The notes below the pieces were generated by a model, which ran no database searches, was not told the origin of the DNA, and saw only the letters and a program-made list of their open reading frames with translations. DNA of 64,000 bases from Dehalococcoidales bacterium (lineage in GTDB: Bacteria > Chloroflexota > Dehalococcoidia > Dehalococcoidales > UBA2162): positions 768 through 64,767 of the forward strand of contig DAOULV010000023.1 in assembly GCA_034416335.1 (NCBI GenBank). Direction: 5' to 3'. The position numbers and the translations under genes were made by a program. Positions 2,039 through 23,852 of this stretch are shown one piece after another. Position 1 is the first letter of the stretch, and each line of letters starts with the position of its first letter.

Positions 2039-5000
2039 ATGAGTGATGAAGCTAAACAATTCAATAGCTACATTAGTTCTCTTCAAAAGGAATTAGCTAC
2101 AGGAAACACAACCGAGCATACTCATAGGCCCGCTTTTAAAACTTTAGTAGAGTCTCTTGATAAGGGAGTAACCGCAACAAACGAACCAGGCAGAATTAAA
2201 TGCGGCGCTCCCGATTTTGTTGTTACGAAAGGAGCCCTCACCATCGGTTATATCGAGGCTAAGGACATCGGTAAAAGTCTGGATGAAGCCGAGAAAACTG
2301 AGCAGTTAACCAGATACCGTGAATCTCTCAATAACCTAATTTTGACCAATTACCTGGAATTCAGATGGTACGTGGATGGTGACCTCCGGCTAGTCGCTAA
2401 TCTGGGAACTCCTGCGAAAGACGGAAAGATAAAACGCAGCAAGACAGGAGCCGAAGACGTCCATGAGCTAATAAGCGGATTTCTAGTAAACAAGGCAGAG
2501 GCTATCGGCACGCCGAAAGACCTAGCCATCCGGATGGCACACCTGGCACATATGATACGCAACCTGATTATCAATGCCTTTGAGAATGAGGAGGAGACCG
2601 GCGGTTTACATACTCAACTAGAGGCTTTCCGGGATAACTTAATTCCTGACCTATCTGTAGAGTATTTTGCGGATATGTATGCCCAGACCATAGCCTATGG
2701 GTTGTTCGCAGCCCGTTGTACATCCAACAATGGTACGTCTTTCACTCGACTTGATGCCGCTCAGAACCTACCGAAGACAAATCCTTTCCTGAGAAAGCTA
2801 TTTCAATACATAGCCGGCTACGACCTTGATGACCGCATTGCCTGGCTGGTGGATGACCTGGCACAGGTGCTGGCACAAGCGGATATGGAAGCCGTGCTCA
2901 AGGGCTTCGGCAAGCACACAGGTAAAGAAGACCCGGTAGTGCATTTCTACGAAACTTTCCTGAAAGAGTACGACCCTAAGATACGGGAAATGCGTGGCGT
3001 CTACTACACGCCGGAACCGGTAGTATCTTATATCGTGCGTTCCATCGATCATCTGTTGAAAACAAGGTTCAATAAACCGCAGGGGTTGGCTGATGAAAAG
3101 ACGCTGATTCTTGATCCCGCGGTGGGTACTGCCACATTCCTCTATACGGTGATTAACGAAATCTATCAGGCTAACACTGCAAAAGGACAGCAAGGTCTGT
3201 GGAATAATTACGTGGCGGAAAAACTCCTGCCGCGTATCTTCGGATTCGAACTGCTAATGGCACCTTATGCCGTAGCGCATCTGAAGCTGGGGCTTCTACT
3301 TCAAGATACAGGCTACGAGTTTAAGAGCGACCAGCGGCTTGGTGTTTACCTGACGAATACACTGGACGAAGCGATAAAACACTCCGAAGCACTCTTCGCA
3401 CAATGGATAAGCGAAGAAGCCAACGCTGCAGCCAGGATAAAGAAAGATGAACCTATTATGGTTGTGCTAGGTAATCCTCCCTATTCAAAACAGTCAGCAA
3501 ATAAAGGGAAATGGATTACAGAACTAATTAATGGTGTTATTGATAAAGATGGACATGAAATGAGTAAAGGATATAAAACTGTTGATGGTAAACCTATTAA
3601 AGAGAAGAATCCAAAATGGCTTCACGATGACTATGTGAAATTTATACGTTTTGGTCAATGGCGTATTGAACTTACAGGCCAAGGAATCCTCGGACTAATA
3701 ACCAATCATGGTTATCTAGATAACCCGACATTCCGTGGTATGCGGCAATCGCTAATAGAGACGTTTACTGATGTGTATATCCTGAACTTGCATGGTAATA
3801 CAAGGAAAAGAGAGGTTACTCCAGATGGCAGCAAGGATGAGAATGTTTTTGATATTCAACAAGGAGTAGCTATAACGTTATTCATTAAAGAAAGAGATGA
3901 AACTAAATCAGCAAAAGTTCATTATATGGATTTCTGGGGAATACGTGAAAAAAAGTACGCTGCTTTATATGAAGCTAGTATCGATACTCTCGAATGGAAG
4001 GAAATAGAACCGCACAGCCCTTATTATTTATTCTTGCCGACACATGAAACAGAGCTAGAGGAATATAACACTGGATGGAAACTTAATGAGATATTCCCTG
4101 CAAATAACGCGGGTTTTTATACATCGAGAGATAATTTAGTTATAGATTACGATAAAGAAGCACTACAAAATAGAATAATGAATTTTCTTGAAAATACTCT
4201 CAGTGATGATGAAATCCGAGAACGATATCAGGTAGTGGAAAAAGATGATTGGAAAATAAATACTACTCGTAAAATTATCCGCAAGGAAAAACATATTTCT
4301 AAGTTTTTTAAAAGGTGTCTTTACCGTCCTTTTGATACAAGGAATATATACTATCATAAAGCCCTGATACAAAGGCCACGATTTGAAATAATGAATCACA
4401 TGATTAGTGGTAATAACATTGGACTTATTTCTGCAAGAAGTAACAAAACATCCGAAATGACTCAGTTTTTTTGTTCATCTAATATAACTGAACTAAAGTG
4501 TGGTGAATATTCCATAGGATCTTACTTGTTCCCGCTTTACCTCTATCCAGTCGAAGGTGAGATGCAGTTTGATGGCGGCAAGCGACGTTCTAACCTTAAT
4601 CCAGAGTTTATAAAGGACGCGTCTGATAAGCTGAGACTAGAGTTTATCGAGGACGGAAGAGGAGACCTGGAGGAAACATTCGGACCGGAGGATATATTCA
4701 ACTATGCCTATGCCGTCTTCCACTCACCAACATACCGGACACGCTACGCCGAATTCCTCAAGATAGACTTCCCTCGCCTACCGCTAACCTCGGATAAGCA
4801 GCTTTTCAAGGCATTAGCAGAGAAAGGCGCCGAACTAGTGTCACTCCATCTCATGGAGTCACCCGCGTTGAATAATCTTATTACCAGTTATCCTGTAGCC
4901 GGTCCCAACGAAATGAAAAAGGTAACCTATGATGACAATAGCCAGCGTGTCTACATCAACAAAACGCAGTACTTTAAGGGTGTTCCGCCTGAAGTCTGGG

Positions 5001-5173
5001 CATTTCATGTAGGCGGGTACCAGGTATGCCAGAAATGGCTAAAAGACCGCAAAGGCAGAACACTCACCTACGATGAATTAACTCATTACCAGAAAATAGT
5101 CGTAGCGCTCAACGAAACTATTCGGTTGATGGCAGAGATAGACAAGTTGATACTGGAGTGGCCGTTAATGTAG
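2039..5173 (+). CDS. type IIG/ISP-like N6-adenine DNA methyltransferase with an N-terminal PD-(D/E)xK-like motif (no helicase)
   Basis: ORF track 1044 aa. Motif I is LDPAVGTATF and motif IV is NPPY (nt 3473-3484). The N-terminus has APD (2210-2215)...IEAK (2255-2263). The C-terminal YAYAVFHSPTYRTRYAEFLKIDFPRLP resembles the type ISP/IIG C-terminal domain. Confidence 0.8.
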   Translation: MSDEAKQFNSYISSLQKELATGNTTEHTHRPAFKTLVESLDKGVTATNEPGRIKCGAPDFVVTKGALTIGYIEAKDIGKSLDEAEKTEQLTRYRESLNNLILTNYLEFRWYVDGDLRLVANLGTPAKDGKIKRSKTGAEDVHELISGFLVNKAEAIGTPKDLAIRMAHLAHMIRNLIINAFENEEETGGLHTQLEAFRDNLIPDLSVEYFADMYAQTIAYGLFAARCTSNNGTSFTRLDAAQNLPKTNPFLRKLFQYIAGYDLDDRIAWLVDDLAQVLAQADMEAVLKGFGKHTGKEDPVVHFYETFLKEYDPKIREMRGVYYTPEPVVSYIVRSIDHLLKTRFNKPQGLADEKTLILDPAVGTATFLYTVINEIYQANTAKGQQGLWNNYVAEKLLPRIFGFELLMAPYAVAHLKLGLLLQDTGYEFKSDQRLGVYLTNTLDEAIKHSEALFAQWISEEANAAARIKKDEPIMVVLGNPPYSKQSANKGKWITELINGVIDKDGHEMSKGYKTVDGKPIKEKNPKWLHDDYVKFIRFGQWRIELTGQGILGLITNHGYLDNPTFRGMRQSLIETFTDVYILNLHGNTRKREVTPDGSKDENVFDIQQGVAITLFIKERDETKSAKVHYMDFWGIREKKYAALYEASIDTLEWKEIEPHSPYYLFLPTHETELEEYNTGWKLNEIFPANNAGFYTSRDNLVIDYDKEALQNRIMNFLENTLSDDEIRERYQVVEKDDWKINTTRKIIRKEKHISKFFKRCLYRPFDTRNIYYHKALIQRPRFEIMNHMISGNNIGLISARSNKTSEMTQFFCSSNITELKCGEYSIGSYLFPLYLYPVEGEMQFDGGKRRSNLNPEFIKDASDKLRLEFIEDGRGDLEETFGPEDIFNYAYAVFHSPTYRTRYAEFLKIDFPRLPLTSDKQLFKALAEKGAELVSLHLMESPALNNLITSYPVAGPNEMKKVTYDDNSQRVYINKTQYFKGVPPEVWAFHVGGYQVCQKWLKDRKGRTLTYDELTHYQKIVVALNETIRLMAEIDKLILEWPLM

Positions 5174-5322
5174 GTATAAATAGGAAATCAATGATTTTTA
5201 TATTACGAAGTTACCTATCAAAGCGGATTTCGGATAATGTCTTTGTTTTAGTATAAAACCTGTTAATTCTCCAAGCTATAGCTTGATTACTAGTTAAGGT
5301 CTAGCATAGTAATCTAAAAACC

Positions 5323-5351
5323 TTGACGTTTGTTGAACATAACATTATAAT
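5323..5351 (+). promoter_or_regulatory. sigma70-like promoter of the six-gene operon
   Basis: TTGACG (5323-5328), 17-nt spacer, TATAAT (5346-5351), in the 213-nt gap after the MTase. Confidence 0.55.
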
Positions 5352-5386
5352 CGAATACTTCACATATGTGGGGGGAGGTAAATAAT

Positions 5387-6286
5387 ATGCCAAACTACAT
5401 TAGAGATTTGTTTCTATATGTACCTGAGCCAGTATTAAGAAATTTATGCAAAGAGCATGGAATAAAGACTTCGGGATTAAAAAAACTGCAACTTGCCGAG
5501 CAGTTAGTAAAAGGGATTGAAACCCAAGAGTATGAGTCTATACTAGATCAACATCGTTATGCCGGAAGGGGAAGCGTGGTTTGGTTTAGACCTACTCGAA
5601 ATGGAGATACTTTCACAATATCCGATACAGAATTGCGAAACCATATACGTAACTATTGTAATGGTGATCCTTTTGAGAACGACCTTACACCAGAGCTTGA
5701 CCGGCATCCGAAAATAATAAGCTCTAGATTCCTCCATAATGATAAAATAATTATTTTAATGGCTCATATTGAGTTGTGGCCTCGAATTGTTGGCTTTGAA
5801 GTACAGGAAACGGAAGAGACGGTATTTTCTAGATTAATCATTCGACAAGGGTCTTTGTTTTTCGAGGCACGCGCTAGTCAATATAAAGCCGTTCTTATGG
5901 CAGAAGATATTGCGGCAGCACTGGATTGTACAGATATAGGTCAGATAACTCTCGGAGATGATGGTATGAATACTCTAATAGATCGACTGGGTGCATCGAC
6001 TATTGCAGCAAAACATAAACATAATTCAGGCGATTATGATACCACCGAAGTAGTTGTTAATCCTCAAATCGGAGATCTGAGAGACTCTTCACAATATTCC
6101 AATGAACTAAGCGGTCTAGAAGGACGTAGGAAACGAGTTTCTTTTGATTGCACTTTCGGTTCTGAGGTGGTAGCCGTAAGAGCGGAGCTTTATCCAAGAA
6201 CTGGGAATATAGTTTTTCGGTCATATGTAGATGAGAGGGTGTTAGATTATGTATTTGAAACAGTTAGACAAATTAAGGGATTATAA
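5387..6286 (+). CDS. hypothetical protein with an N-terminal SAP-like motif
   Basis: GGAGG 5374-5378 plus ATG 5387 is preferred over ATG 5366. LRNLCKEHGIKTSGLKKLQLAEQLV resembles a SAP DNA-binding motif. The rest is unassigned. Confidence 0.5.
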   Translation: MPNYIRDLFLYVPEPVLRNLCKEHGIKTSGLKKLQLAEQLVKGIETQEYESILDQHRYAGRGSVVWFRPTRNGDTFTISDTELRNHIRNYCNGDPFENDLTPELDRHPKIISSRFLHNDKIIILMAHIELWPRIVGFEVQETEETVFSRLIIRQGSLFFEARASQYKAVLMAEDIAAALDCTDIGQITLGDDGMNTLIDRLGASTIAAKHKHNSGDYDTTEVVVNPQIGDLRDSSQYSNELSGLEGRRKRVSFDCTFGSEVVAVRAELYPRTGNIVFRSYVDERVLDYVFETVRQIKGL

Positions 6287-6638
6287 CATTGCACAAGAGA
6301 CCATAGCTAAGCTAGATGAATATCTAAATAGCATCGCTGAAGAAGGAACAAAACGTTTCAGCCCCAATCACATGGCCGAACGGACTGGGCTTGACATTCA
6401 AATTTCTCAAACGATACTTCTCCGAACAGCTCAAATAGGAACAATTCAAACTTACTATGAAATAGAATGTCCTGAAGGTGATAGTGATTTTTTTGTTACG
6501 AGAATAGAAGATGTTGATTGGAATACTGAATGTGTATGTAGAGTGTGTGGCACAGAATATATACCAAATCCTTCTAATATTTGGGTGACGTTTAGTATTT
6601 TAGACCCTCCTTCCCCAAAAGCATTATGCCGCCTGTAA
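6249..6638 (+). CDS. hypothetical wHTH-like / Zn-ribbon-like protein
   Basis: ORF track 129 aa with a GAGGGTG SD before ATG 6249 and a 38-nt overlap with the upstream gene. It has an HTH-like SPNHMAERTGLDIQISQTILLRTAQ and a Cys cluster ECPEG...CVCRVCG. Confidence 0.45.
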   Translation: MYLKQLDKLRDYNIAQETIAKLDEYLNSIAEEGTKRFSPNHMAERTGLDIQISQTILLRTAQIGTIQTYYEIECPEGDSDFFVTRIEDVDWNTECVCRVCGTEYIPNPSNIWVTFSILDPPSPKALCRL

Positions 6639-7240
6639 GTGGTACTCACAAATCAGGTGGCAGCCTACAAGAACTAACTAAAAGACCAGAGTGGATAGAT
6701 TTCATCCCATCTCAGTTGGTGGCACTTGATAGAGATAAATACTCAGAATTACTAGGACGAGTTGAAGAATCACTCCTTTCAGGAACCAATAAAGAAAAAG
6801 GAGATAGTCTAGAAGAACTCGCTGATTTTCTATTAAGCTCAATCAAAGCATTTATTGTCGGGCAAAAAACCAACACATCAACCGGAGAGCTGGATAGATT
6901 CTTGAAAATAAGTAAGATTCCCGGGACATTTTTATGCGACTGGTCATTGTATATTCCCGTAGAATGTAAAAATTGGAATGATCCTGTGGGTGGGGATATT
7001 ATTGACCATCTTTATGCCAAAGCAAGGAATATGGATGCAAATCGAGGAATTTTATTTTCTCGTGAAGGTGTTACAGGCAATATGAGTCATGATGGTTGGA
7101 GACAAATCGTAAACTTATTTCAAAATTCCCGTTATATAACCATTGTTGTGGACATTGATGACCTAAGAAGTATCAACGCTGGAACTTGTCCATTGCATAT
7201 AATAGAGCAATGCCAGGAAAAAGTAATATTAAGCGCATGA
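6626..7240 (+). CDS. Mrr-like restriction endonuclease-domain protein
   Basis: ORF track 204 aa. GDSLEELADFLL...ELDRFL...YIPVECKNW...GILFSREGVT follows the Mrr_cat PD-(D/E)xK layout (D...ExK). It overlaps the upstream gene by 13 nt. Confidence 0.6.
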   Translation: MPPVSGTHKSGGSLQELTKRPEWIDFIPSQLVALDRDKYSELLGRVEESLLSGTNKEKGDSLEELADFLLSSIKAFIVGQKTNTSTGELDRFLKISKIPGTFLCDWSLYIPVECKNWNDPVGGDIIDHLYAKARNMDANRGILFSREGVTGNMSHDGWRQIVNLFQNSRYITIVVDIDDLRSINAGTCPLHIIEQCQEKVILSA

Positions 7241-7283
7241 ATAAGTACTATTTCAAACCTTTCAATTCGGTAATGAGTTATAG

Positions 7284-8192
7284 ATGATGAACGAACTTAA
7301 CAGCTCACATTTAAATATAATCGACACCATTAAGCTCAGGGGAAGAGAATTTACAGATGATGAGTTGAGCACTATTCGTGAAAGTGTGATAAATAACTTT
7401 GACAAAGGTCGTACTTATATATCAAGAGATATTTGTAATACCCTCAATTGGAAACAACCAAATGGTTGGCTAAAAGATAGAGCATGCCGTGACGTGTTAC
7501 TTGAATTAGAAAAAAGAGAAATAATCAAACTTCCACCTCCTTTGGTAGTTAAGAACAACAAAAAATCTAACAAAGGCAATAGTATAAGTTATTTGAAAAA
7601 TTTTGATCTGAATACACCTATATCCGAATTCCCAAATTCTATTGAACTAGAATTTGCAAAAGGTAATATTCAAGAGAAAGTCTGGAATGAACTGGTCAAT
7701 CAATATCATTATTTGGGACATAGCACTACTGTTGGTAGGTGCATTAAGTATCTGATTAGATCTAACGACAGGTTACTAGGGGCACTCTCATTTTCATCTC
7801 CGGCATGGGAACTGGAGACTAGGAATAATATCCTTAACTCAATAGGTATTGAAAATCCAAGAGATTACACAATAAATAATTCTAGATTTCTCATTTTACC
7901 TATAGTGCAAGTAAATAATCTTGCATCACATGTGTTAGCTATAGCAGCAAAAAAGATTGTTAACGATTGGAAGGACTATTATTCCATAATTCCTCTGATT
8001 GCTGAAACTTTCGTTCAACCATCTCGATTCGATGGCACCTGCTATAAGGCAGCCAACTGGATAGAAATTGGTACAACAAAAGGTTATGCTAAAAGAGGAA
8101 GATTTTATCGAAACAGTCAGGAACCCAAGAAGATATTTTTGTATGGTTTAGATAAAAGAATACGAACAAAGTTGCTACAATTAGAGAAATAG
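7284..8192 (+). CDS. DUF4338-domain protein (DruA-like)
   Basis: ORF track 302 aa. QYHYLGHSTTVGRCIKYLIRSNDRLLGALSFSSPAW and ETFVQPSRFDGTCYKAANWIEIGTTKGY match my memory of the DUF4338 signature. Confidence 0.65.
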   Translation: MMNELNSSHLNIIDTIKLRGREFTDDELSTIRESVINNFDKGRTYISRDICNTLNWKQPNGWLKDRACRDVLLELEKREIIKLPPPLVVKNNKKSNKGNSISYLKNFDLNTPISEFPNSIELEFAKGNIQEKVWNELVNQYHYLGHSTTVGRCIKYLIRSNDRLLGALSFSSPAWELETRNNILNSIGIENPRDYTINNSRFLILPIVQVNNLASHVLAIAAKKIVNDWKDYYSIIPLIAETFVQPSRFDGTCYKAANWIEIGTTKGYAKRGRFYRNSQEPKKIFLYGLDKRIRTKLLQLEK

Positions 8193-8200
8193 GCATTATA

Positions 8201-9256
8201 ATGAATGCACGAGATACCTTAAAGAATGCGCGAGAATTTATTCGTAAACAAGGCGGGCAAATTGCACCGCTCCCTATAACTGAAGAGGAATTGGATCCTT
8301 CAGCTCAAGATGATCAGTCACTTGAAACTTTTTCCTTAGAACCTACAAATTGCCAGAATGTTGAGTATTCATATCCAGATGACTGTGGAAACAGCGAATT
8401 CTCCTTTTTTGAAGATGGTAAACAGAGAACTCTACATATAGGATTTATAGAAACCGAATATGGAGATCATACTGCTATAATTCCGGTACATTTTGTAGTT
8501 GTTGCCGCAGTAATCTTACAACGGCAAGAGCGTGAATTAAGCCTTTGGGATCAGCCAGTGATCCGAAGTGGAATATTGGTCGAAAAGTCACTTGTTCCGA
8601 ATACACATGCTCTTAATGAATTTGAAAATCTCGGATTAGAAATAATCGATACAGAAGGTCTTGGAGGAGACTACTACGTATTGAGGAATAAAGCTTTACA
8701 AAAAGCAAAATCTATGAGATTAGAAGTCGAGGATGAATTAATACGTCGATGGCGTACAAGCGATGATGCCCAAAACGGCTTTTTAATAGTAGATGGGACG
8801 TTGATGAATTTTCGCGACGAGGAGAATGTTAGGCATTGTATTGGTGTCAGTAAATCATTCGGTACTAGATATTTCACCACAAGTGAGCACAATCGTATAT
8901 TACAAATGCAAGAATTTCAAAGATCTTGGACATTTCGTTTCCACCATCCTGGAGATGCACTAAATTTGGGAGTACGTGACCGAGTAAGTTGGTACCTAAG
9001 ACTTAGAACTAAAACTAACGCCGATCCTGAGTTTGGTCTTATCCGAGTAGAGATAAGTCACTCTTATCATAACCAGGCAACCGATTATGCTAATCGATTC
9101 TCTAAATCATTAATATCAGAAAGGCTACCTACTTCCTATCCGGATAGTCGGTGGGATAAACTTTTATATCCTATTCAAGAGTGTGAGAGTTATTTGTCAA
9201 GTGTAATACCTTCAATTCAAACCATCGCTTCCAGTATGAAAGGAGCGCTGTCATGA
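8201..9256 (+). CDS. NurA-like nuclease
   Basis: ORF track 351 aa. NurA-type motifs are FEDGKQR, RLEVEDE, FLIVDGTL and GVSKSF. It sits directly upstream of, and overlaps, a HerA-like ATPase. Confidence 0.55.
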   Translation: MNARDTLKNAREFIRKQGGQIAPLPITEEELDPSAQDDQSLETFSLEPTNCQNVEYSYPDDCGNSEFSFFEDGKQRTLHIGFIETEYGDHTAIIPVHFVVVAAVILQRQERELSLWDQPVIRSGILVEKSLVPNTHALNEFENLGLEIIDTEGLGGDYYVLRNKALQKAKSMRLEVEDELIRRWRTSDDAQNGFLIVDGTLMNFRDEENVRHCIGVSKSFGTRYFTTSEHNRILQMQEFQRSWTFRFHHPGDALNLGVRDRVSWYLRLRTKTNADPEFGLIRVEISHSYHNQATDYANRFSKSLISERLPTSYPDSRWDKLLYPIQECESYLSSVIPSIQTIASSMKGALS

Positions 9257-11052
9257 CATATCAGTCGGTACCACAGGAAGAATCGCCTGAAATGCAAAAT
9301 GAAGAGTTTAGCCTAAGTAATTTTCTGAATATTAGCTACGGAGTCATTGGTAGAACTGCATCGACGAGATTTGAACCCAACACTTCCGGTAAATTCCACT
9401 TTTGGTTATCGAAACTTGCGCCTAATCTTCCAGCTGATGATGATCATGAAGTTCCTACTCCTAACGAAACTCAAGAAGTTGGTAGAGACCGGGAAGAAGT
9501 GGCGCCAATAGAAATAGGAAATATCGTGGCTGCATATTCAGATGATGAGGTAGATATTACATTTGGTACAGTAACAGAAATGAGATCATATAGCGATGTG
9601 GAGAGTTTCATTTCTGATTATTTAAGTCATGATTTTGGCGATGCCACTATTCAAGTTCCGACTGATATTACTGAAGTAATTGTTGTCACTTGTGCTGTAA
9701 TGCGTAATATATCACTTAAGACCAAGCCCGTGGGGAGATCTCGAGTATATTTCCCGAGTACATTAGGGATTCAATTTTCCTACGGAATCGTTGATGAAAA
9801 TGGTGAAATAACCTTTAGAGGTGCGCCTATACCCTTTGGAGTATTTGAAAACGGTGATGGCACTATTGCTCCAATCAGTGTAGACGAAAATTTCTTACTC
9901 GGACCGGAAGGCGCTCATCTTAATGTTTCTGGTATTTCAGGCTTAGCATCAAAAACTTCAGCAATTGAATTTACGATCAACTCTCTTCTCACTCACACTC
10001 GTAAGAGACTGGCTGTAGTGATGTTCAATGTTAAAAGTCAAGATTTACTTTACATCGATCAGGTGAATCCGAGACTCGCGGAGGAAGAATGGTCACAATG
10101 GGCATATGACATTTTAGGTGTACCTCAAGAACCATTTGCTAATGCAAGTTTCTATGCACCTGCAGATCCTAGAAATGCACCAGATGGGACACAGAGTTCC
10201 AGAAGTCTTGAAGTACAGCCCTTCGAATGGAATTTACCTATGATTTATCAGCAAATTCCAACTCTATTTGACCAGATGGATTGGGATGATAGGATGGAAG
10301 GAGTCTGGTTTACAATACAGGGCGATATAGAAAGTGGCCAAATTTTATCTTACGGGCAAATGGTTAATTCGGTTCAAAATCTTATCAATACAGCAACAAA
10401 TAATCAGCGACAATGGGTAAGAGGCAACCATATTTCTACTTGGCAAAAAATGTTATCACACTTAAGGCGATTTCCACAATCTTATCAAGGATTGATAACA
10501 CCTGCTGGTACGGGTAGGGACATACCATGGAATGAGTTACAGGAAAATAGTGTTTGGATCATCGACATTGAAATGCTCGCTGATCGAGGTCAAAGGCTGG
10601 TATTTGGTCGTTCAGTGTATGCTATTAGCGAGATGTTAGAATCTGATGATAGCAACCTAGACGCAGTTGTAGTATTTGTTGACGAATTAAACAAATTTGC
10701 TCCTTCAGGAAATGTTAGAACTCCACTGAAATCTAGGTTAATTGATATCACAGCAAGAGGACGAAGCATAGGAATGGTTCTTTTCGGTGCGGAACAATTT
10801 GTTTCATCAGTAGACAGAGAAATCGTCGAAAATAGTTCAACGTATCTATTCGGACACACTGAAACAAATGAACTACGTAGCCCTACATTTAGTGCGTTGA
10901 GTGATGAAGTAAAAACAAAATTGACGATGCTTCCTCAAGGACAACTGTTAATTAAATTTGCAAAATTCCCACAGCCAATATTCTTGAAATTCCCATTTCC
11001 CGCATGTTGTCCTGGTGATCAATATAGTTCAGAAGACGTGGGAGATCAGTAG
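9253..11052 (+). CDS. HerA/FtsK-superfamily (DUF87-like) ATPase
   Basis: ORF track 599 aa with an ATGA overlap with the NurA-like gene. It has a HAS-barrel-like N-terminus, a deviant Walker A SGISGLASKTS (nt 9931-9960), a Walker B VVVFVDE (nt 10665-10686) and ARGRSIGMVLFGAEQ. Confidence 0.65.
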   Translation: MTYQSVPQEESPEMQNEEFSLSNFLNISYGVIGRTASTRFEPNTSGKFHFWLSKLAPNLPADDDHEVPTPNETQEVGRDREEVAPIEIGNIVAAYSDDEVDITFGTVTEMRSYSDVESFISDYLSHDFGDATIQVPTDITEVIVVTCAVMRNISLKTKPVGRSRVYFPSTLGIQFSYGIVDENGEITFRGAPIPFGVFENGDGTIAPISVDENFLLGPEGAHLNVSGISGLASKTSAIEFTINSLLTHTRKRLAVVMFNVKSQDLLYIDQVNPRLAEEEWSQWAYDILGVPQEPFANASFYAPADPRNAPDGTQSSRSLEVQPFEWNLPMIYQQIPTLFDQMDWDDRMEGVWFTIQGDIESGQILSYGQMVNSVQNLINTATNNQRQWVRGNHISTWQKMLSHLRRFPQSYQGLITPAGTGRDIPWNELQENSVWIIDIEMLADRGQRLVFGRSVYAISEMLESDDSNLDAVVVFVDELNKFAPSGNVRTPLKSRLIDITARGRSIGMVLFGAEQFVSSVDREIVENSSTYLFGHTETNELRSPTFSALSDEVKTKLTMLPQGQLLIKFAKFPQPIFLKFPFPACCPGDQYSSEDVGDQ

Positions 11053-12583: not shown

Positions 12584-12985
12584 CTATTTCTTTCTGTCAG
12601 ACTTTCTAGGTTTTGATTCAAAGAATTTAATCACCTTCTCTCGCAGGTATCGTTCGGCAAATGAATTAACGGTGCCGTCAGGATATATTATTCTGTTGCC
12701 GATAAGAGGTTTCATTTTATTCTCTAATGCCACCTCAGAAAGAGAAGTCCCGAGTTTATCCTTGAGTTCTTTTAAACTGTAAGTAGTATTTTGCCAGAGT
12801 CATTCCCATAATTTATTTACCGATTCACCGGGAGAGCCTTTGATTTTACTGATACGCCTTATATCCAGGCTAGTCCATGCAACGATGATTTTTACCAGCT
12901 CTGGATTGTCATCGAGTAACAGCACAATCTCAGGCTTTTCATTCTGTTTGAACCAGTCCAACTTTTCGGTATATAGATTGTCCAT
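12584..12985 (-). pseudogene. paralogue of the 22150..22521 small protein, interrupted by an in-frame TGA
   Basis: It aligns end to end with the 127-aa ORF (DNLYTEKLDWFKQNEKPEIVL... and ...NRIIYPDGTVNSFAERYLRE). TGA 12800-12802 sits where the paralogue has Trp. ATG 12985 lies 4 nt after the ParB-like stop. Confidence 0.6.
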
Positions 12986-12989
12986 TGAA

Positions 12990-13637
12990 CTATACCCGGT
13001 ACCGAATATATGGGTAATTTTCAAGATAGAAACGTGCTAAGTGCGTGAGTGCATGGCTGCGTGATGGTTCTTCTTTTATTCTAGATATCAAATCCAGGGC
13101 GAGGTTTATTTCTCTGGCTTCAGATTCTTCTACCATAAAAGTAAAGCTGACGGGAATAGTGAACTTACCTCCTTCAGAAGTGTTTGATATGATTTCGTCT
13201 GCCTCAAGGTGTGATAGGCGTTTTAATTCCTCAATCTGTTTATTGTTATCTGGAAGAAGTGCCGTCAGTTCATCAGCTTCGTAGGATTTAAAAAGGTTTT
13301 CTAAAAGTATTGCTCTTCGCTCGGGGACTTCTTTACCAGACAGTCGATTAAGGGTTGCCAGATAAAGTCTTGTCTGAGAATCGTCAAGTTTCCAGACCAG
13401 GCAGTTTATTGTTCGATAACTAAGAGCGCGAAGTACACGTAAACGATTATGCCCATTGATAATCTGAAACTTACCTCTTTCGCTAGGATGCAGACGAACC
13501 GTCAACGGTTCATACCTGCCACTCCGCTCTATATGACGCCTTAGTTTACGGGCTGTTTCCGCATTCATAAAGTTACTGTTTTCTGGATGTTCGACCAATA
13601 ATTCAATAGGGATTTCCTGTATTTTTATATTATCCAT
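12990..13637 (-). CDS. ParB/Srx N-terminal-domain protein (ParB-like nuclease domain)
   Basis: ORF track 12990..13724. ATG 13637 is preferred because it avoids a 77-nt overlap. IPIELLVEHPENSN...YEPLTVR...FQIINGHNRLRVLRAL is the ParB-N pattern. Confidence 0.65.
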   Translation of the reverse strand: MDNIKIQEIPIELLVEHPENSNFMNAETARKLRRHIERSGRYEPLTVRLHPSERGKFQIINGHNRLRVLRALSYRTINCLVWKLDDSQTRLYLATLNRLSGKEVPERRAILLENLFKSYEADELTALLPDNNKQIEELKRLSHLEADEIISNTSEGGKFTIPVSFTFMVEESEAREINLALDLISRIKEEPSRSHALTHLARFYLENYPYIRYRV

Positions 13638-13647
13638 TTTATCTATT

Positions 13648-14595
13648 CTATTCGAATAAGTTTCCCTGAGAAGGAATCTCAGTGGAATTCGACCAGTGTC
13701 CGACAATATTACAGCTTCCGCCAATATCCGGGTTCATGCAGCCACAAACTGAGATCTCTATACCGTATATACCAGCGATTCTCTTTACATTCTCGTATAT
13801 TTCATTCCGCGTAGAGGGAGGTAGAGGGACGATAGAAGAATGAGGAGAAAGAACAGGCATACGCCCGGATAAATAGTGACTCATTATACGTTTGGTTATC
13901 GAACTGTCGTTTATATATTTTTGCAGGTTTCGAGCAATCATCGGACGTAGAAATAGTGTGCTTATTGCCGCTTTTTTTATGCCCGTATTAGCTAAAGTCT
14001 CTAATAGACTATTCATGGATACCTCAGTATCGGTAATTCCTGGTATTATGGGTATTATCCTAGCCTCAACTTGTATACCTGCATTGACCAGAGCTTCTAT
14101 TTGCTTGAGACGTACACTTACAGAAGCAGCATTGGGCTCAAAGATGCGTCTTACCGAATCATCTGCGGTGATTGTGCCTATCTGGACTCTGACGATATGA
14201 GCATGTTCTCGCAAAAGACCTAGAGTTTTCTCCGGTATTTTCCCCTTGGTTAAAAAAGCCACCCCAATATCTTTGGCAAGCAATAGATTTAAAACACGGT
14301 GACTTAGTTCCAGCACGTTCTCTAGAGGTTGAAAAAGGTCACTCGAGGGGCTGAAATACACTGCCTGCGGTAATTTCCTTTTTAATGAGAGTTCTTTTTC
14401 CAATTTTTCCAGGATGTTAACGTATAAAGAAACTTTGTTGTCGCCTGGATATACGGAGTATCCGCGAGCGTAGCAATAGAGACAACTATGAGCACATCCC
14501 AGGGTTAAATTAACTGTCGGAATATTAGACAGGCAGGAGAGACTGGATGGAGTGAGAATTGCAGATTTTCTTTCTGTATATTTCAACACTACCAT
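13648..14595 (-). CDS. radical SAM protein, COG1533 / SplB-like ('DNA repair photolyase') family
   Basis: ORF track 315 aa. The CxxxCxxC cluster GCAHSCLYCYARG lies near the N-terminus. Size and layout are typical of COG1533. Confidence 0.75.
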   Translation of the reverse strand: MVVLKYTERKSAILTPSSLSCLSNIPTVNLTLGCAHSCLYCYARGYSVYPGDNKVSLYVNILEKLEKELSLKRKLPQAVYFSPSSDLFQPLENVLELSHRVLNLLLAKDIGVAFLTKGKIPEKTLGLLREHAHIVRVQIGTITADDSVRRIFEPNAASVSVRLKQIEALVNAGIQVEARIIPIIPGITDTEVSMNSLLETLANTGIKKAAISTLFLRPMIARNLQKYINDSSITKRIMSHYLSGRMPVLSPHSSIVPLPPSTRNEIYENVKRIAGIYGIEISVCGCMNPDIGGSCNIVGHWSNSTEIPSQGNLFE

Positions 14596-16208
14596 ATGTA
14601 TTCACCTTTAAGATTCAGGTAATGCTCTTTAGACTTGTGTGAAAATATGTAAGCAAAGTTACCTCTAAGTTTTAAGGTTTTGGTCATATCACAGACCATA
14701 ATGTCATTAAGCGAAAAAGCAGTCATGTGATCGATGAGTTCACGAGAAGTCAGATCCATATCGATGATAATCGTGTAATCACAAACAGTCATGAGGCAAT
14801 CAATAATACTTCTCCCGTCTGTAGTTACCAGACATTCGGGGTTGAATTTCCGTGCGGGAAGTACGAAATCCTGGTTCTTTATATCTCCACATACTTTAGA
14901 ATCTAACAATGTCATGCTCTTATAGAACCGGGTAAGTGATACAAGAGAGTATATTTTTTCGTTCGTTCTATACTTACTTGAATTCGAAATTGCCAGATTG
15001 TCTACTCCCCCTCCGGTTGGAGACAGACTGTTTTCAGGAAGGACCGATTCGATGTTAGATGTAGGAAATAAATCTTTGAGCATCTCTGTTAACTTTTCAG
15101 AATCTAAATTTACAAAGAAGAAATTACCGCAGGTATCTAGCACTTTCGAGATCAAAGCAATTCTTATCCCGTCGGTTTTAGTTGACGGAAGTACCCGACT
15201 TAACCAATTCCTGTAGTCATCGCCAGTATATTCCAGACTACCAATTTACGCTTGCATATTATCTTGAAGAAAGAATCTGGCAGGATTAGGAGGTTCCAGA
15301 TCAACAGATCGCAGTCGGAATCTCGGTGTGAATCCGAATTGTCCTCCCAATTTCTGGATTTTACGGCAAAGTGTGGCAACAAGGCTGCTGCTTCCAGCTC
15401 CTATATCTAAAAACTCTATAGTAATATCATCATTGAAATATTTGTGCTCGGATTGGATTACAGGTTTAACAATACCCTGAAATATTTGTCTTCCTCGTTC
15501 GGCGGTCCATGGGTCGGTTGCATATTTAATACTATCTACAAATTTATTTAGTAGTTGGAAACTTTTCCCCCGCTTTTCTATAGACACTGCAGGATAGAAG
15601 AAGAGTGACATCGGAGAATCCTTAGATAGTGAATACTGCCTGTAATGAAAAAATAATTCCGGTTTCTTATCTCCATTAACTGTAATCACAGGAAGAAAAC
15701 GGGAGTCGTCTAAAGAGTTAGGAAACTTCAGTTTAGCTAAGAGATAGCAAGGATTCCGCGTTGTACAGATTCCGGCAGCGAGTATCTCAGCGTCGGAATC
15801 TGTTAAGATTATTCCGAAGCATTCGAAACCTAAAACCGCCCTAAGTGCGCTTAACCATGATTGAGTAGCGCAGGTTTCCGAATAATTTGATAGAAAAGTG
15901 TTGAGTAAAGAAAAGTAATGGTAACAGAAATCTTTCATTAATGAGGAACTAAATCCACAGTGAATATAATTTCTCCAAACAAAATGAAGCTTGTAAAGAT
16001 TATCCTCTAATTCCTTGTGTTTAAGTTCATACAATGGCTGCCAGTATGCATTCCAATCCTTTGTTTCTAAAATAAACCTTCCACTATTAAAAACCTTAAC
16101 ACTGGTAAGGATAGTATCTTTCTCCAGGACTGACAAAAGTAGTCCCCTATTACGGACTCTTATAAGATTATTTAGCGGTATCGCTGCTGTTTTCATTTCC
16201 GATTCCAA
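14589..16208 (-). pseudogene. about 539-codon class I SAM-methyltransferase-like gene interrupted by a single in-frame TAA
   Basis: ORFs 15246..16208 and 14589..15155 share one frame and are separated only by TAA 15246-15248, with 30 sense codons bridging them. Motif I IEFLDIGAGSS and RSVDLEP lie just before the stop. The 3' end overlaps the rSAM start (ATGGTAG). Confidence 0.55.
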
Positions 16209-16230
16209 AATATATCATATGTGTATGCAA

Positions 16231-16279
16231 AGAACAAGTGTTCTATTGGCATAATAACACTATATAATTTTTAAGACAA
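16231..16279 (-). promoter_or_regulatory. promoter plus LexA/SOS-box-like operator of the islet operon
   Basis: On the minus strand: TTGTCT (16279-16274), 17 nt, TATTAT (16256-16251), then the palindrome AGAACAAGTGTTCT (16231-16244, GAAC-N4-GTTC) 22 nt upstream of ATG 16208. Confidence 0.45.
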
Positions 16280-22102: not shown

Positions 22103-22149
22103 CTTTCTGGATTGTTTGAAAGAAAGCTGATTCTTACTTGCTTTTCCTT

Positions 22150-22521
22150 TCAAACAATCTTACTACCCTGTTCCCGAAGGTATTTTTCGACGAACGAATT
22201 CAATGTGCCGTCAGGATAAATGACCCGGTTACTCATGAGAGGCTTAATCTTACTCTCCAGAGCTGCCACAGAGAGAGAAGTTCCGACTTTCTCCTTAAGG
22301 TCTTTTAAATCATACTCGGTATTTTCCCATAACCATACCCAGGACTCGACCTCTGATTCACCAGGAGTACCTTTGAGTCTCTTTACAGGCTTAGTATCCA
22401 GACTTGTCCAAGCAATCGATATCTTTATCAGGTCTGGCTCATCTTTGAGAAATAAAACGATTTCCGGCTTCTCATTCTGTTTGAACCAGTTCAGTTTCTC
22501 AGTGTATAAATCTTCAGTCAT
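22150..22521 (-). CDS. conserved small protein of unknown function (paralogue of 12584..12985)
   Basis: ORF track 22150..22533. ATG 22521 is chosen by homology. An alternative GTG 22533 abuts the rSAM stop. Confidence 0.55.
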   Translation of the reverse strand: MTEDLYTEKLNWFKQNEKPEIVLFLKDEPDLIKISIAWTSLDTKPVKRLKGTPGESEVESWVWLWENTEYDLKDLKEKVGTSLSVAALESKIKPLMSNRVIYPDGTLNSFVEKYLREQGSKIV

Positions 22522-22533
22522 TTCCTGATACAC

Positions 22534-23757
22534 TTATAATACGCAATTACATAGACCCAGGTTTTTCTCAATTCCCAATTTTGACCATAGCTGATGTTCC
22601 TCCAGACAGAGTGCAACCTCAAGGTCAGGACATATTTTTCGTGCCGCCTGGATAATAGTGGAGTATATCCTTTCTCTCAATTCTGGAGAATATCGGGCTC
22701 TACCATCCCCCGATTTTCTCAAAGTATTGTTAATATGATCCGATATGGAGTTATGCAAGCCTAACTTATGCTCCATAAGTTTACGCGCACCTTGATAAAT
22801 ACATATACCACCAAGAGTAAGTCGCTGAACGGGAATCTCTTTTAGGAGTCGAACCGTAAATGCAGTATATTTTTCTTCCCATCCATCAACAGGAATAACA
22901 GGCATCATAACTACACGGACCGGGTAACCGGCAGAAGCCACACTACGCATGGCTTCAAGGCGTTCCTCTATTCCAGGAACATTCTCTTCGTACATTTCAC
23001 ATACTTCGGGTGGGTTAACACTCCAGGACAGAATCGTGTTCCCATGGTGTTTAGTATCCAATAATCTATTAACGTTGGTACTTTTAGTTAAGAGTATCAA
23101 TCGAGCCTGGGGATGTTCCGCAAAAAAAGGAACCAAGATACTTGAATAAGCCGTCAGGGAATCAAGAGCTAAAGGGTCTTGGAGCTTGCCGATATAAAAT
23201 GGAGTGGGTTTTCCTATATTACAAGCGGTATTGTTTATTGTATTAATCATCTCTGGAAGGTTTACGTATATCTTAACTGTAGGAGAAAATCTGACGCCCT
23301 GAGTCCCAGCGAGGTAACAGTATTTGCAACCGAACGGGCAAAAACCATACGGAGAAAAATGCCAGTAGTTCGGGCAGGTATTCCCTTCTTCCCGGCTAAA
23401 CCGGACGGCGCTCTTAAGTTCTCCGAAAACAAGTGTCTTTTTACCTGCCTGATGTAAAGCAAGAGTTTCTCTCTCATCCAGAATTATCCGGTTATGAGGG
23501 GTGTCAGGACATTTTACTGTTTCAGTTCCTGGATAAAGGCTGCATATGCGTTCTACAAATCTGTGGCGTTCCGGTGTAGAGACGCTTCCCCTGGCCAGAA
23601 AAATCCTAGATATTTCCAGGTGTTCAGGACGAGTCGGCTGATAATCAATCGGTAGACCGATTCTTTGTTGCGTATTATCAAACAAACCAAGTTGTCTAGA
23701 TTTTCCACCCATCCGTTTCCTCATTATTAACTGGTAATATGAATCGCTTTCTTTCAA
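22534..23757 (-). CDS. radical SAM protein, spore-photoproduct-lyase (SPL)-like family
   Basis: ORF track 407 aa. Motifs are FCPFGCKYCYLAG (CxxxCxxC), LILLTKS and ILSWSVNPPEV...AGYPVRVVMMPVIP. Confidence 0.75.
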   Translation of the reverse strand: MKESDSYYQLIMRKRMGGKSRQLGLFDNTQQRIGLPIDYQPTRPEHLEISRIFLARGSVSTPERHRFVERICSLYPGTETVKCPDTPHNRIILDERETLALHQAGKKTLVFGELKSAVRFSREEGNTCPNYWHFSPYGFCPFGCKYCYLAGTQGVRFSPTVKIYVNLPEMINTINNTACNIGKPTPFYIGKLQDPLALDSLTAYSSILVPFFAEHPQARLILLTKSTNVNRLLDTKHHGNTILSWSVNPPEVCEMYEENVPGIEERLEAMRSVASAGYPVRVVMMPVIPVDGWEEKYTAFTVRLLKEIPVQRLTLGGICIYQGARKLMEHKLGLHNSISDHINNTLRKSGDGRARYSPELRERIYSTIIQAARKICPDLEVALCLEEHQLWSKLGIEKNLGLCNCVL

Positions 23758-23838
23758 CGAATTTTATATCCACCACAGGTAACCGCCTTATAGGAACAGT
23801 TTACTCTCACTGAAATTTAATGGTATTACATTTATATA

Positions 23839-23852
23839 CGAACATATGTACT
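23839..23852. promoter_or_regulatory. LexA/SOS-box-like palindrome (imperfect)
   Basis: CGAACATATGTACT has a GAAC-N4-GTAC core with one core mismatch. It lies 82 nt upstream of the rSAM ATG 23757, next to a TATATAAAT -10-like element on the minus strand. Confidence 0.3.

Follow-up and report, generated by a model that had tools for sequence, protein, structure and literature searches.

At positions 22150-23852 of the 64,000-nucleotide stretch of Dehalococcoidales DNA analysed here (called the window throughout), a gene for a radical SAM enzyme with the fold of spore photoproduct lyase (SPL) adjoins a gene for a small protein of a new family. We found that this SPL-like gene pair is a cut-down copy of a cassette that is present in at least eight phyla. 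In its full form the cassette would consist of an SPL-fold radical SAM enzyme, a methyltransferase, a ParB-domain protein and a small, usually basic protein. The methyltransferase would take one of three forms, namely a fusion of ParB with an N6/N4 methyltransferase (type A), a protein of about 540 residues (type B), or a divergently transcribed class-I enzyme beside solo copies of the radical SAM gene. The explanation that fits best, and that we hold to be on balance probable, is that a horizontally mobile cassette, repressed by LexA, inducible by DNA damage and acting on nucleic acid, is present at the window locus in reduced form.

The radical SAM gene is intact and lies at 22534..23757 on the minus strand. 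Its open reading frame (ORF), which contains FCPFGCKYCYLAG, specifies 407 residues from a TTG codon, and the likely true start is an ATG at 23712, where the aligned homologues begin and which would give a protein of approximately 392 residues. The small partner gene (22150..22533, minus strand) adjoins this ORF without a gap in the ORF table and encodes 127 residues from a GTG or 123 residues from an ATG at 22521, the latter preceded by an AGGA ribosome-binding sequence. An earlier note on this DNA had described exactly such an arrangement of a 407-residue radical SAM enzyme and an adjoining protein of 123 to 127 residues. The module 22150-23852 is compositionally foreign, having a G+C fraction of 0.42 versus 0.54 in its flanks. 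A candidate LexA-type (Cheo-like) operator, GAACATATGTAC, which reads GTACATATGTTC on the operon strand, occupies positions 23840..23851, at a distance of 83 nt from the TTG and about 128 nt from the likely ATG start. A second cassette, of type B, is found at 12584-16243 in what we refer to as the islet.

The earlier note proposed that the small protein is a functional partner of the radical SAM enzyme. We tabulated the homologues of the small protein together with their neighbours, using a genome scan with one genome per species that returned 46 loci and a 47-locus census in which neighbours were assigned by phmmer and clustering. ORFs in the fetched loci were called mechanically, and the taxonomic labels of metagenome-assembled genomes may be wrong. 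The small-protein loci came from Chloroflexota, Bacillota, Fibrobacterota, Planctomycetota, Desulfobacterota, Sumerlaeota, Hydrogenedentota and Nitrospirota, and those from Desulfobacterota included the cultured Desulfatibacillum alkenivorans DSM 16219, which has two copies of the cassette (L031 and L039). A radical SAM gene of the SPL/COG1533 superfamily was located within 5 kb of the small-protein gene in approximately 37 of the 47 loci, representing at least eight phyla, and three or four of the other loci were cut by contig ends. The gap between the two genes was often 10-20 nt, again across phyla, and a ParB-domain gene was present in 32 of the 47 loci. The linkage of the small protein to radical SAM genes thus extends well beyond this genome, and the proposal withstands the test set in the earlier note, which asked whether homologues elsewhere are linked to such genes. 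Chance adjacency of the two genes was rejected by this census and by the metagenome census described below.

Two types of cassette could be distinguished. Type A consists of a gene for a ParB_N plus N6_N4_Mtase fusion, a gene for an SPL-like radical SAM enzyme of about 390 residues and the small-protein gene, which in some phyla comes first. Type B consists of genes for a methyltransferase-like protein of about 540 residues, a COG1533 radical SAM enzyme, a ParB_N-only protein and the small protein. Mixed forms occur, as do super-cassettes in which types A and B are contiguous (loci L124, L068, L070 and L131). The metagenome census covered the best 80 of at least 492 SPL-like matches, with 57-69% identity to the window enzyme. 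In the 47 SPL-like loci for which both flanks could be read, the small protein and the ParB-methyltransferase were found together in 18, neither was found in 23, the methyltransferase only in 2 and the small protein only in 4 (Fisher exact p=2e-7). The small protein tracks the ParB-methyltransferase and is therefore tied to the ParB/methyltransferase component and not to the radical SAM enzyme alone. In line with this, viral contigs have small-protein homologues near ParB and C5-methylase genes but no radical SAM gene nearby. The notion of a functional partner holds in so far as the small protein is linked to a radical SAM cassette, but the partnership is with the whole ParB/methyltransferase/radical SAM cassette; likewise, the pairing seen in the window is conserved, but the conserved unit is larger than two proteins, since it adds a ParB domain and a methyltransferase.

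The solo SPL-like genes, with neither a ParB gene nor a small-protein gene, were accompanied in 21 loci by a divergent gene for a class-I (Rsm22-like) methyltransferase of approximately 290 residues. Loci with this divergent gene are L062, L080, L085-L092, L096, L099-L101, L104, L105, L111, L114-L116, L120 and L121, as well as L025:8802-11267. The SPL-like radical SAM family is thus almost always paired with a methyltransferase. In the type A enzyme, motif IV reads GPPY (FGGPPYF) instead of DPPY, NPPY or SPPY in all nine sequences compared (including L001:5548-6795), which may point to an unusual target atom or substrate, and the ParB motif of the fusion is AGHTRWKAA. Other recurrent partners are a TudS-like 2-thiouracil desulfidase (PF04463), a MerR-like protein, DUF1848 and a radical SAM enzyme of 250 residues. 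The TudS/DUF523 homologue, of 155 residues, is encoded in L029, L030, L035, L036, L048, L112, L122, L124, L125 and L131, sometimes with the MerR-like protein (193 residues) and the small protein and no radical SAM gene. The TudS-like gene, a viral cysteine desulfurase gene and, in L044, a gene for a protein resembling 3'-phosphoadenosine 5'-phosphosulfate (PAPS) reductase hint at sulfur-related base chemistry. Our searches of the literature found no description of a ParB/methyltransferase/radical SAM cassette.

One could envision a different purpose for such a set of genes. The cassette might be a DNA hypermodification module of phages or other mobile elements that serves in anti-restriction or defence; the methyltransferase and the radical SAM enzyme would jointly install a new base modification, with the small protein as targeting or specificity factor. 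This scenario overlaps with the explanation given above and differs from it in purpose, epigenetic conflict rather than repair, and SOS control would then reflect a prophage-like lifestyle. Small-protein homologues were indeed present on 13 IMG/VR viral contigs, although they are distant (25-40% identical), and ParB_N was encoded near 5 of the 13. In L136 and L140 the homologue lies near genes for C5 methylases, a patatin-like protein and a cysteine desulfurase, with no radical SAM gene nearby; the C5 methylases (L136:4947-7154 and L140:5673-7160) carry inteins (Hint/Intein_splicing, with LAGLIDADG in one). The ParB protein of the islet has PHROG matches, and its sole PADLOC match is to a generic type II methyltransferase model; the ParB-methyltransferase fusions match phage families. 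A gene for the large terminase subunit lies beside SPL-like genes in L125, L131 and L135, there are weak TAGT-like and PAPS-reductase-like neighbours, and the small-protein domain is in some cases fused to a phage zinc finger. The low G+C content of the module and the position of the type B copy at the edge of a defence island (Type ISP, DruA) also fit an element engaged in conflict. On the other hand, most cassettes stand alone among housekeeping genes with no integrase or phage gene nearby, tblastn recovered no small-protein homologue from 50,697 cultured-phage or 72,556 plasmid (PLSDB) records, the SPL-like enzyme was encoded on only one viral contig, and no PADLOC 2.0 model matches the small protein or one of the two radical SAM enzymes. 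We regard a role in epigenetic conflict as doubtful.

The small protein belongs to a new family of 125-135 residues for which no structural neighbour was found in PDB or BFVD. It had no match in Pfam, NCBIfam, PHROGs or PADLOC, and a profile search of PDB sequences returned nothing significant. A word-indexed search yielded 190 homologues; among the 120 listed, identity ranged from 58 to 100%, no Pfam domain was found, and the few that were named came from Dehalococcoidia/Chloroflexi. An exhaustive profile search gave 438 cluster representatives (50% identity) at E<1e-3. The AlphaFold2 model had a predicted local distance difference test score (pLDDT) of 95.6 and a predicted template modelling score of 0.87 when built from a diverse alignment of 79 sequences, which was needed for a confident model; with 33 close homologues pLDDT was 51. 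The model predicts an N-terminal helical bundle and a winged-helix-like C-terminal half. Taking the order alpha1-beta1-alpha2-alpha3-beta2-wing-beta3 as the criterion for a winged helix, residues 61-112 would follow it (helices 61-70, 76-83 and 89-101, strand 72-73 and strand marks of one residue each near 105 and 111), and the invariant YPDG would form the wing. An invariant W-x-W-L-W motif lies in the first helix of this half. A Foldseek search with the model found no match below E=0.9 in PDB or BFVD; the weak matches were mostly winged-helix regulators, and no helix-turn-helix Pfam model was matched. The isoelectric points of ten sampled members ranged from 5.3 to 9.9, six of them being 9.1-9.9. 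Four representatives (P0146, P0148, P0151 and P0169) carry the domain fused C-terminally to approximately 200 residues of TPR repeats, and in two (P0257 and P0263) the fusion is to the phage zinc-finger DNA-binding domain mentioned above. The sequence QVVKLF was considered as a beta-clamp-binding motif and rejected, as its spacing is wrong and it falls within a predicted helix.

The evidence for regulation comes in part from the palindrome. The earlier note had placed a GAAC-N4-GT(T/A)C sequence before each of two loci, and the two sequences, GAACATATGTAC and GAACAAGTGTTC, were in fact the sole intergenic instances in the 64 kb, the relaxed pattern included; the third instance is intragenic. 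The second of them, at 16232..16243, is a candidate LexA-type operator. It directly follows a promoter-like TTGTCT-17-TATTAT site, and the first type B gene begins 24 nt further downstream. By number alone the matches are not significant (three matches to G[AT]AC-N4-GT[AT]C observed in the window versus 2.8 expected). Arithmetic from the window density puts the chance of a box at a 150-bp site at approximately 0.007, and at both sites at approximately 4e-5. Of 24 Chloroflexota cassettes, of both types, about 20 had a box close to their first gene, as compared with none of about 15 in other phyla, and in several Chloroflexota loci it was the sole exact match in 7-16 kb. The consensus of 33 sites is TA-G[A/T/C]AC-ATAT-GTTC-TTAT, with conserved flanks and an orientation that is fixed relative to the operon; in search form, the candidate Chloroflexota box is TAGNACATATGTTCTTAT. 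Among the metagenome loci, 15 of 64 had the box, against a background of 0.02 per 220 bp. The LexA protein of Dehalococcoides was reportedly found by Fernandez de Henestrosa et al. in 2002 to use the Gram-positive box. Two GAAC-N4-GTTC boxes are present in the intergenic region of L025 that is shared by the SPL-like and class-I methyltransferase genes. A GAACTTGTGTTC box precedes a gene for a Macro-domain protein of 308 residues (L020:8782-9890), 2.7 kb downstream of a type B cassette, and this gene may be a further member of the same Chloroflexota regulon.

The gene lexA itself (LexA_DNA_bind plus Peptidase_S24) was identified on three metagenome contigs. In L124 it is the first gene of an operon that continues with genes for a type B methyltransferase-like protein, a COG1533 radical SAM enzyme, a ParB protein, a TudS-like protein, an SPL-like radical SAM enzyme and the small protein. 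It lies directly upstream, and on the same strand, of the genes for the SPL-like radical SAM enzyme and the small protein in L132 and of the SPL-like gene in L128. On all three contigs the lexA promoter contains, between its −35 and −10 elements, a perfect palindrome of the TACCGTCATATGACGGTA type. The sequence TACCGTC(A/G)(T/C)ATGACGGTA, found with a TTGACA −35 element at L124:470-510, L128:1440-1480 and L132:3750-3790, is a candidate LexA box of a GC-rich lineage. L026 and L129 have a shorter relative, TACCGCATGCGGTA, in front of the cassette. The loosely defined pattern ACCG-N-CGGT gave 120 matches, of which only the three lexA-proximal sites and those of L026 and L129 were noteworthy. GAAC-N4-GTTC is the LexA motif of Gram-positive bacteria (PMC3323433), and SplB/COG1533 is a recurrent SOS gene in several phyla (PMC8565304, PMC3323433, PMC3765255). 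Because the candidate box is conserved and phylum-specific, because lexA is linked to the cassette, and because SplB/COG1533 is found as an SOS gene, we favour the interpretation that the evidence points to SOS (LexA) control.

Alternatively, the palindrome might not be a LexA site at all. It could be an operator for the small protein, which would then function as an autoregulator resembling a C protein, or a parS-like site for the ParB protein. The same motif, in the same orientation, precedes both cassette types despite the fact that their first genes are unrelated; the motif also occurs in L018, a contig binned to Chitinispirillaceae; its left half-site is degenerate; and the small protein has a predicted winged-helix topology, with most of the sampled members being basic. 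We nevertheless think that this alternative is improbable. The motif is absent from cassettes outside Chloroflexota that encode the same proteins, its core is the sequence published as the LexA consensus for Gram-positive bacteria, and lexA itself heads the operon in another lineage. The box is also found before genes with no adjacent small-protein or ParB gene, as in L025 (the second SPL-like gene and a class-I methyltransferase gene), L020 (Macro-domain gene) and L075, and it has been kept in the window even though the ParB-methyltransferase gene is gone. Moreover, conservation within the small protein is lowest in the putative recognition helix.

The radical SAM enzyme appears to be a member of a distinct SPL-fold family rather than a spore photoproduct lyase. 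The earlier label of SPL family is right with respect to the fold, for the 407-residue protein passes the Pfam SPL model PF20903 (E=4e-31, 108.5 bits against a gathering threshold of 27 bits), but it does not extend to true SPL, as the score against the SPL equivalog TIGR04070 was 126.1 bits, where the cutoff is 400 bits. The protein also matches Radical_SAM weakly, and in a profile search of PDB sequences SPL was the best match (E=1e-33 over approximately 260 residues). CPFGCKYCY of the window enzyme aligns with CMGHCHYCY of SPL, so that CxxxCxxC and both flanking tyrosines (Tyr96 and Tyr98 in the reference enzyme of G. thermodenitrificans) are retained. The position of the hydrogen donor of SPL, Cys140, is occupied in the alignment by an invariant Lys within a GKLQD motif in 18 of 18 family members. 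Cys140 of G. thermodenitrificans corresponds to Cys141 of B. subtilis, and the wild-type residue was deduced from the C140S and C140A variants in the PDB. The window enzyme retains all of the invariant columns of the 18-sequence alignment, including C140/C144/C147 (its own numbering), C128, C319, C384 and C405. Beyond the radical SAM triad there are four invariant cysteines and one that is nearly invariant (C128, C319, C384, C403 and C405), and the family shares a C-terminal CNC(V/I)L. The extra cysteines, which have no counterpart in SPL, could mark an auxiliary Fe-S cluster or catalytic thiols. Column identity across phyla averages 64% (52-70% identity across at least eight phyla), and the ratio of nonsynonymous to synonymous substitution rates between the window enzyme and its homologues was 0.10-0.13. 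We conclude from the alignment and the profile scores that the enzyme is probably not SPL, because it falls below the TIGR04070 cutoff and the catalytic cysteine is replaced by an invariant Lys; its chemistry would have to differ from that of SPL, because the donor cysteine is an invariant Lys and four additional cysteines are invariant. That it should be an ordinary UV-repair SPL with an unrelated small ORF as its neighbour is highly improbable, since, although its best Pfam, NCBIfam and PDB matches are all to SPL and both tyrosines by the cluster motif (CKYCY) are kept, neither the TIGR04070 score, the lysine at position 140 nor the extra cysteines fit, the small gene accompanies the radical SAM gene in different phyla, and the named hosts are Dehalococcoidia, Planctomycetota, Desulfobacterota and similar bacteria, which we take to be non-sporulating anaerobes.

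How the window copy departs from the complete cassette is best seen by comparison with L001 (Dehalococcoidales, CP070800), which is syntenic with the window. Between the two, DNA identity is 81.5% for the divergent aldehyde:ferredoxin oxidoreductase gene and 71.7% for the radical SAM and small-protein genes. In L001 a gene for a ParB-methyltransferase of 415 residues lies between the box and the radical SAM gene, whereas the window has only a spacer of 213 bp at that place; a ParB-methyltransferase gene is also found at the type A position in L053. No gene for a ParB_N plus N6_N4_Mtase protein was found anywhere in the 64-kb window. The small-protein gene is altered as well. Its C-terminal tail (22135..22170, minus strand) is frameshifted by an extra G in the GGG run at 22166-22168, so that GSKIV* replaces the basic tail of the family. 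We attribute the shift to the extra G because the +1 frame, RVVRLFERKSK*, which runs down to 22135, matches the family tail, and the blastn match to L001 continues to the same position. The isoelectric point of the window protein is 5.0 because the basic tail has been lost through the frameshift. The window locus is thus a type A cassette without its ParB-methyltransferase, partly decayed. The earlier note had recorded neither the frameshift in the tail, the TAA in the islet, the low identity of the two radical SAM enzymes (given below) nor the absence of the ParB-methyltransferase.

The type B cassette of the islet lies on the minus strand. Its first gene (14589..16208) encodes a protein that elsewhere is a single polypeptide of about 540 residues. 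In the window it is split into ORFs of 320 and 188 residues by one in-frame TAA (15246-15248), after which the frame continues unchanged, as judged from the alignment with homologues and from translation of the frame. The protein had no match among Pfam, NCBIfam or PDB sequences; the window copy contains a SAM-binding motif, LDIGAGSSSL, followed by VDLEP, and on such motifs the family may be called methyltransferase-like. The second gene (13648..14595) is intact and encodes a COG1533-type radical SAM enzyme of 315 residues that is similar to PA0069/Rv2578c. It passes Radical_SAM (51 bits) and scores below threshold for PF20903 (22.6 bits) and below the cutoffs of NF033668 (105 bits) and NF038135 (99 bits; E=1e-28 to 1e-30 for the two). 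It is 23% identical to the 407-residue enzyme. The ParB_N-only protein (12990..13724; an ORF of 244 residues, or about 215 from an internal ATG) scores 28.4 bits with PF02195 against a cutoff of 26.3, and its motif reads NGHNRLRV rather than the canonical CTP-binding motif GERRxRA. Orthologues hold the same position in 9 genome loci. No ParA-like gene was noticed among the window ORFs, which were not searched systematically for one. The last gene (12584..13024) is the interrupted relative of the small protein that the earlier note had recognized beside the ParB and radical SAM genes of the islet; its two ORF fragments are 65% identical to the intact copy over 116 residues (E=2e-57). A single in-frame TGA (12800-12802) stands at the position of a conserved Trp codon in the intact copy, and the frame continues after it. 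Recoding of TGA as Trp was considered and dropped, because the same operon also has an in-frame TAA; with two different stop codons in one operon, ordinary nonsense mutation is the simpler explanation.

Both cassettes of this genome are therefore partly decayed. Each of them has a methyltransferase component and a small protein that are either damaged or absent; both radical SAM genes have stayed intact, as has the ParB gene of the type B cassette. This joint damage fits a coupling between the small protein and the methyltransferase, though it could be coincidence. Because the ParB-methyltransferase is missing, the basic tail is lost and the type B cassette has two nonsense codons, the full pathway is probably not operating in this genome. 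Upstream of the type B cassette, a low-GC islet (2039-11052) resembles a defence island. It encodes a Type ISP restriction-modification enzyme (Type_ISP_C, N6_Mtase) at 2039-5173 and a DruA/DUF4338 protein at 7284-8192, and its ORFs of 306, 204, 351 and 599 residues had no Pfam match.

A mechanism for the intact cassette can be outlined in four steps. LexA would occupy the TA-GNAC-ATAT-GTTC-TTAT sequence overlapping the promoter, and DNA damage would relieve repression, as suggested by the conservation of the motif and the linkage to lexA. The radical SAM enzyme would then direct a 5'-deoxyadenosyl radical, derived from S-adenosylmethionine, at a flipped-out base, as SPL does, with a chemistry that the alignment suggests to be different. 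The radical SAM enzyme and the methyltransferase would act in one pathway, because they are paired almost constantly, and would make or remove a methyl-derived base modification or lesion. Finally, the small protein might be a subunit that binds DNA or acts as an adaptor and that belongs with the ParB/methyltransferase component, consistent with their co-occurrence and with the structural model. From these patterns we infer that the substrate is DNA rather than RNA, in which order the reactions run and what the small protein does. More specifically, we tentatively suggest a damage-induced pathway for nucleic-acid modification or de-modification that is typical of anaerobes, in which the methyltransferase and the radical SAM enzyme would act sequentially on a DNA base, guided by the ParB and small proteins.

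Several observations weigh against this picture of a LexA-controlled, DNA-directed cassette of which the window holds a remnant. Position 2 of the left half-site is free (A, T or C) and the motif occurs in a single orientation, which is unusual for a plain LexA box, and the site could be an operator or loading site that the cassette owns and carries along. Neither the window nor any of the 51 genome loci contained lexA, recA or another canonical SOS gene. Since other loci (L052, L093, L107 and L132) also have the two-gene form, the window copy may be a functional variant and not a remnant, and with a long-term ratio of nonsynonymous to synonymous rates of 0.10-0.13 the pair may retain some function. 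About half of the SPL-like genes in the metagenome census are without the small protein. The target could be RNA, given that the class-I methyltransferase is Rsm22-like and that a TudS-like gene is a frequent neighbour. The winged-helix matches obtained with Foldseek are not significant (E>=0.9), and the poor conservation of the putative recognition helix across the family is a further point of this kind.

If the tentative suggestion of a sequential pathway on a DNA base is correct, anaerobes could make or erase a methyl-derived base adduct without oxygen and under SOS control. Apart from spore photoproduct lyase, we know of no established substrate for the radical SAM enzymes encoded by SplB/COG1533 SOS genes. 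The present analysis turns an orphan radical SAM enzyme into a defined multi-component system, adds a small-protein family of approximately 440 sequence clusters, and offers a candidate LexA operator for Chloroflexota of the Dehalococcoidia type and a second candidate, TACCGTCATATGACGGTA, for another lineage. Testable hypotheses follow on radical chemistry at methylated or damaged bases in anaerobes, and Desulfatibacillum alkenivorans DSM 16219 offers a cultured host for testing the system.

Spore photoproduct lyase (SplB, TIGR04070, PDB 4FHC) has the same fold as the window enzyme and shares CxxxCxxC and the flanking tyrosines; the window enzyme differs by the Lys in place of Cys140, the four extra cysteines, the C-terminal CNC and the pairing with a methyltransferase. 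The phage and plasmid methyltransferases that are fused to ParB (ParB_N plus N6_N4_Mtase) have the same architecture as the first gene product of type A, and on viral contigs relatives of the small protein are encoded next to ParB and DNA methylase genes. The version in the cassette is distinguished by its close coupling, across very short intergenic gaps, to a radical SAM enzyme and the small protein, its location behind a LexA-type box and its GPPY motif. KorB-KorA offers an analogy only, in that a ParB-domain protein is combined with a small helical protein that probably binds DNA. The cassette differs from it in that the ParB motif is GHNR or GHTR instead of GERR; the searches made with the small protein gave no match to KorA in sequence or structure, and neither a partition ATPase nor a parS site was seen.

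The closest comparison is with the SOS-regulated SplB/COG1533 genes of the PA0069/Rv2578c type, which likewise place a radical SAM enzyme of this superfamily behind a LexA operator (PMC8565304, PMC3323433). Operons that pair COG1533-type enzymes with an uncharacterized small accessory protein have also been described (PMC3765255). Both window enzymes score far below the equivalog cutoffs of the PA0069/Rv2578c families. The small protein of the window has no Pfam match and may on that ground differ from ImuB-C. Whereas the operon partners in the known SOS systems are ImuB-C, DUF4130 and UDG, their place in the cassette is taken by a ParB domain, a methyltransferase and a new family of 125-135 residues, and we rate the cassette as a variant of the SOS-regulated SplB-type systems.

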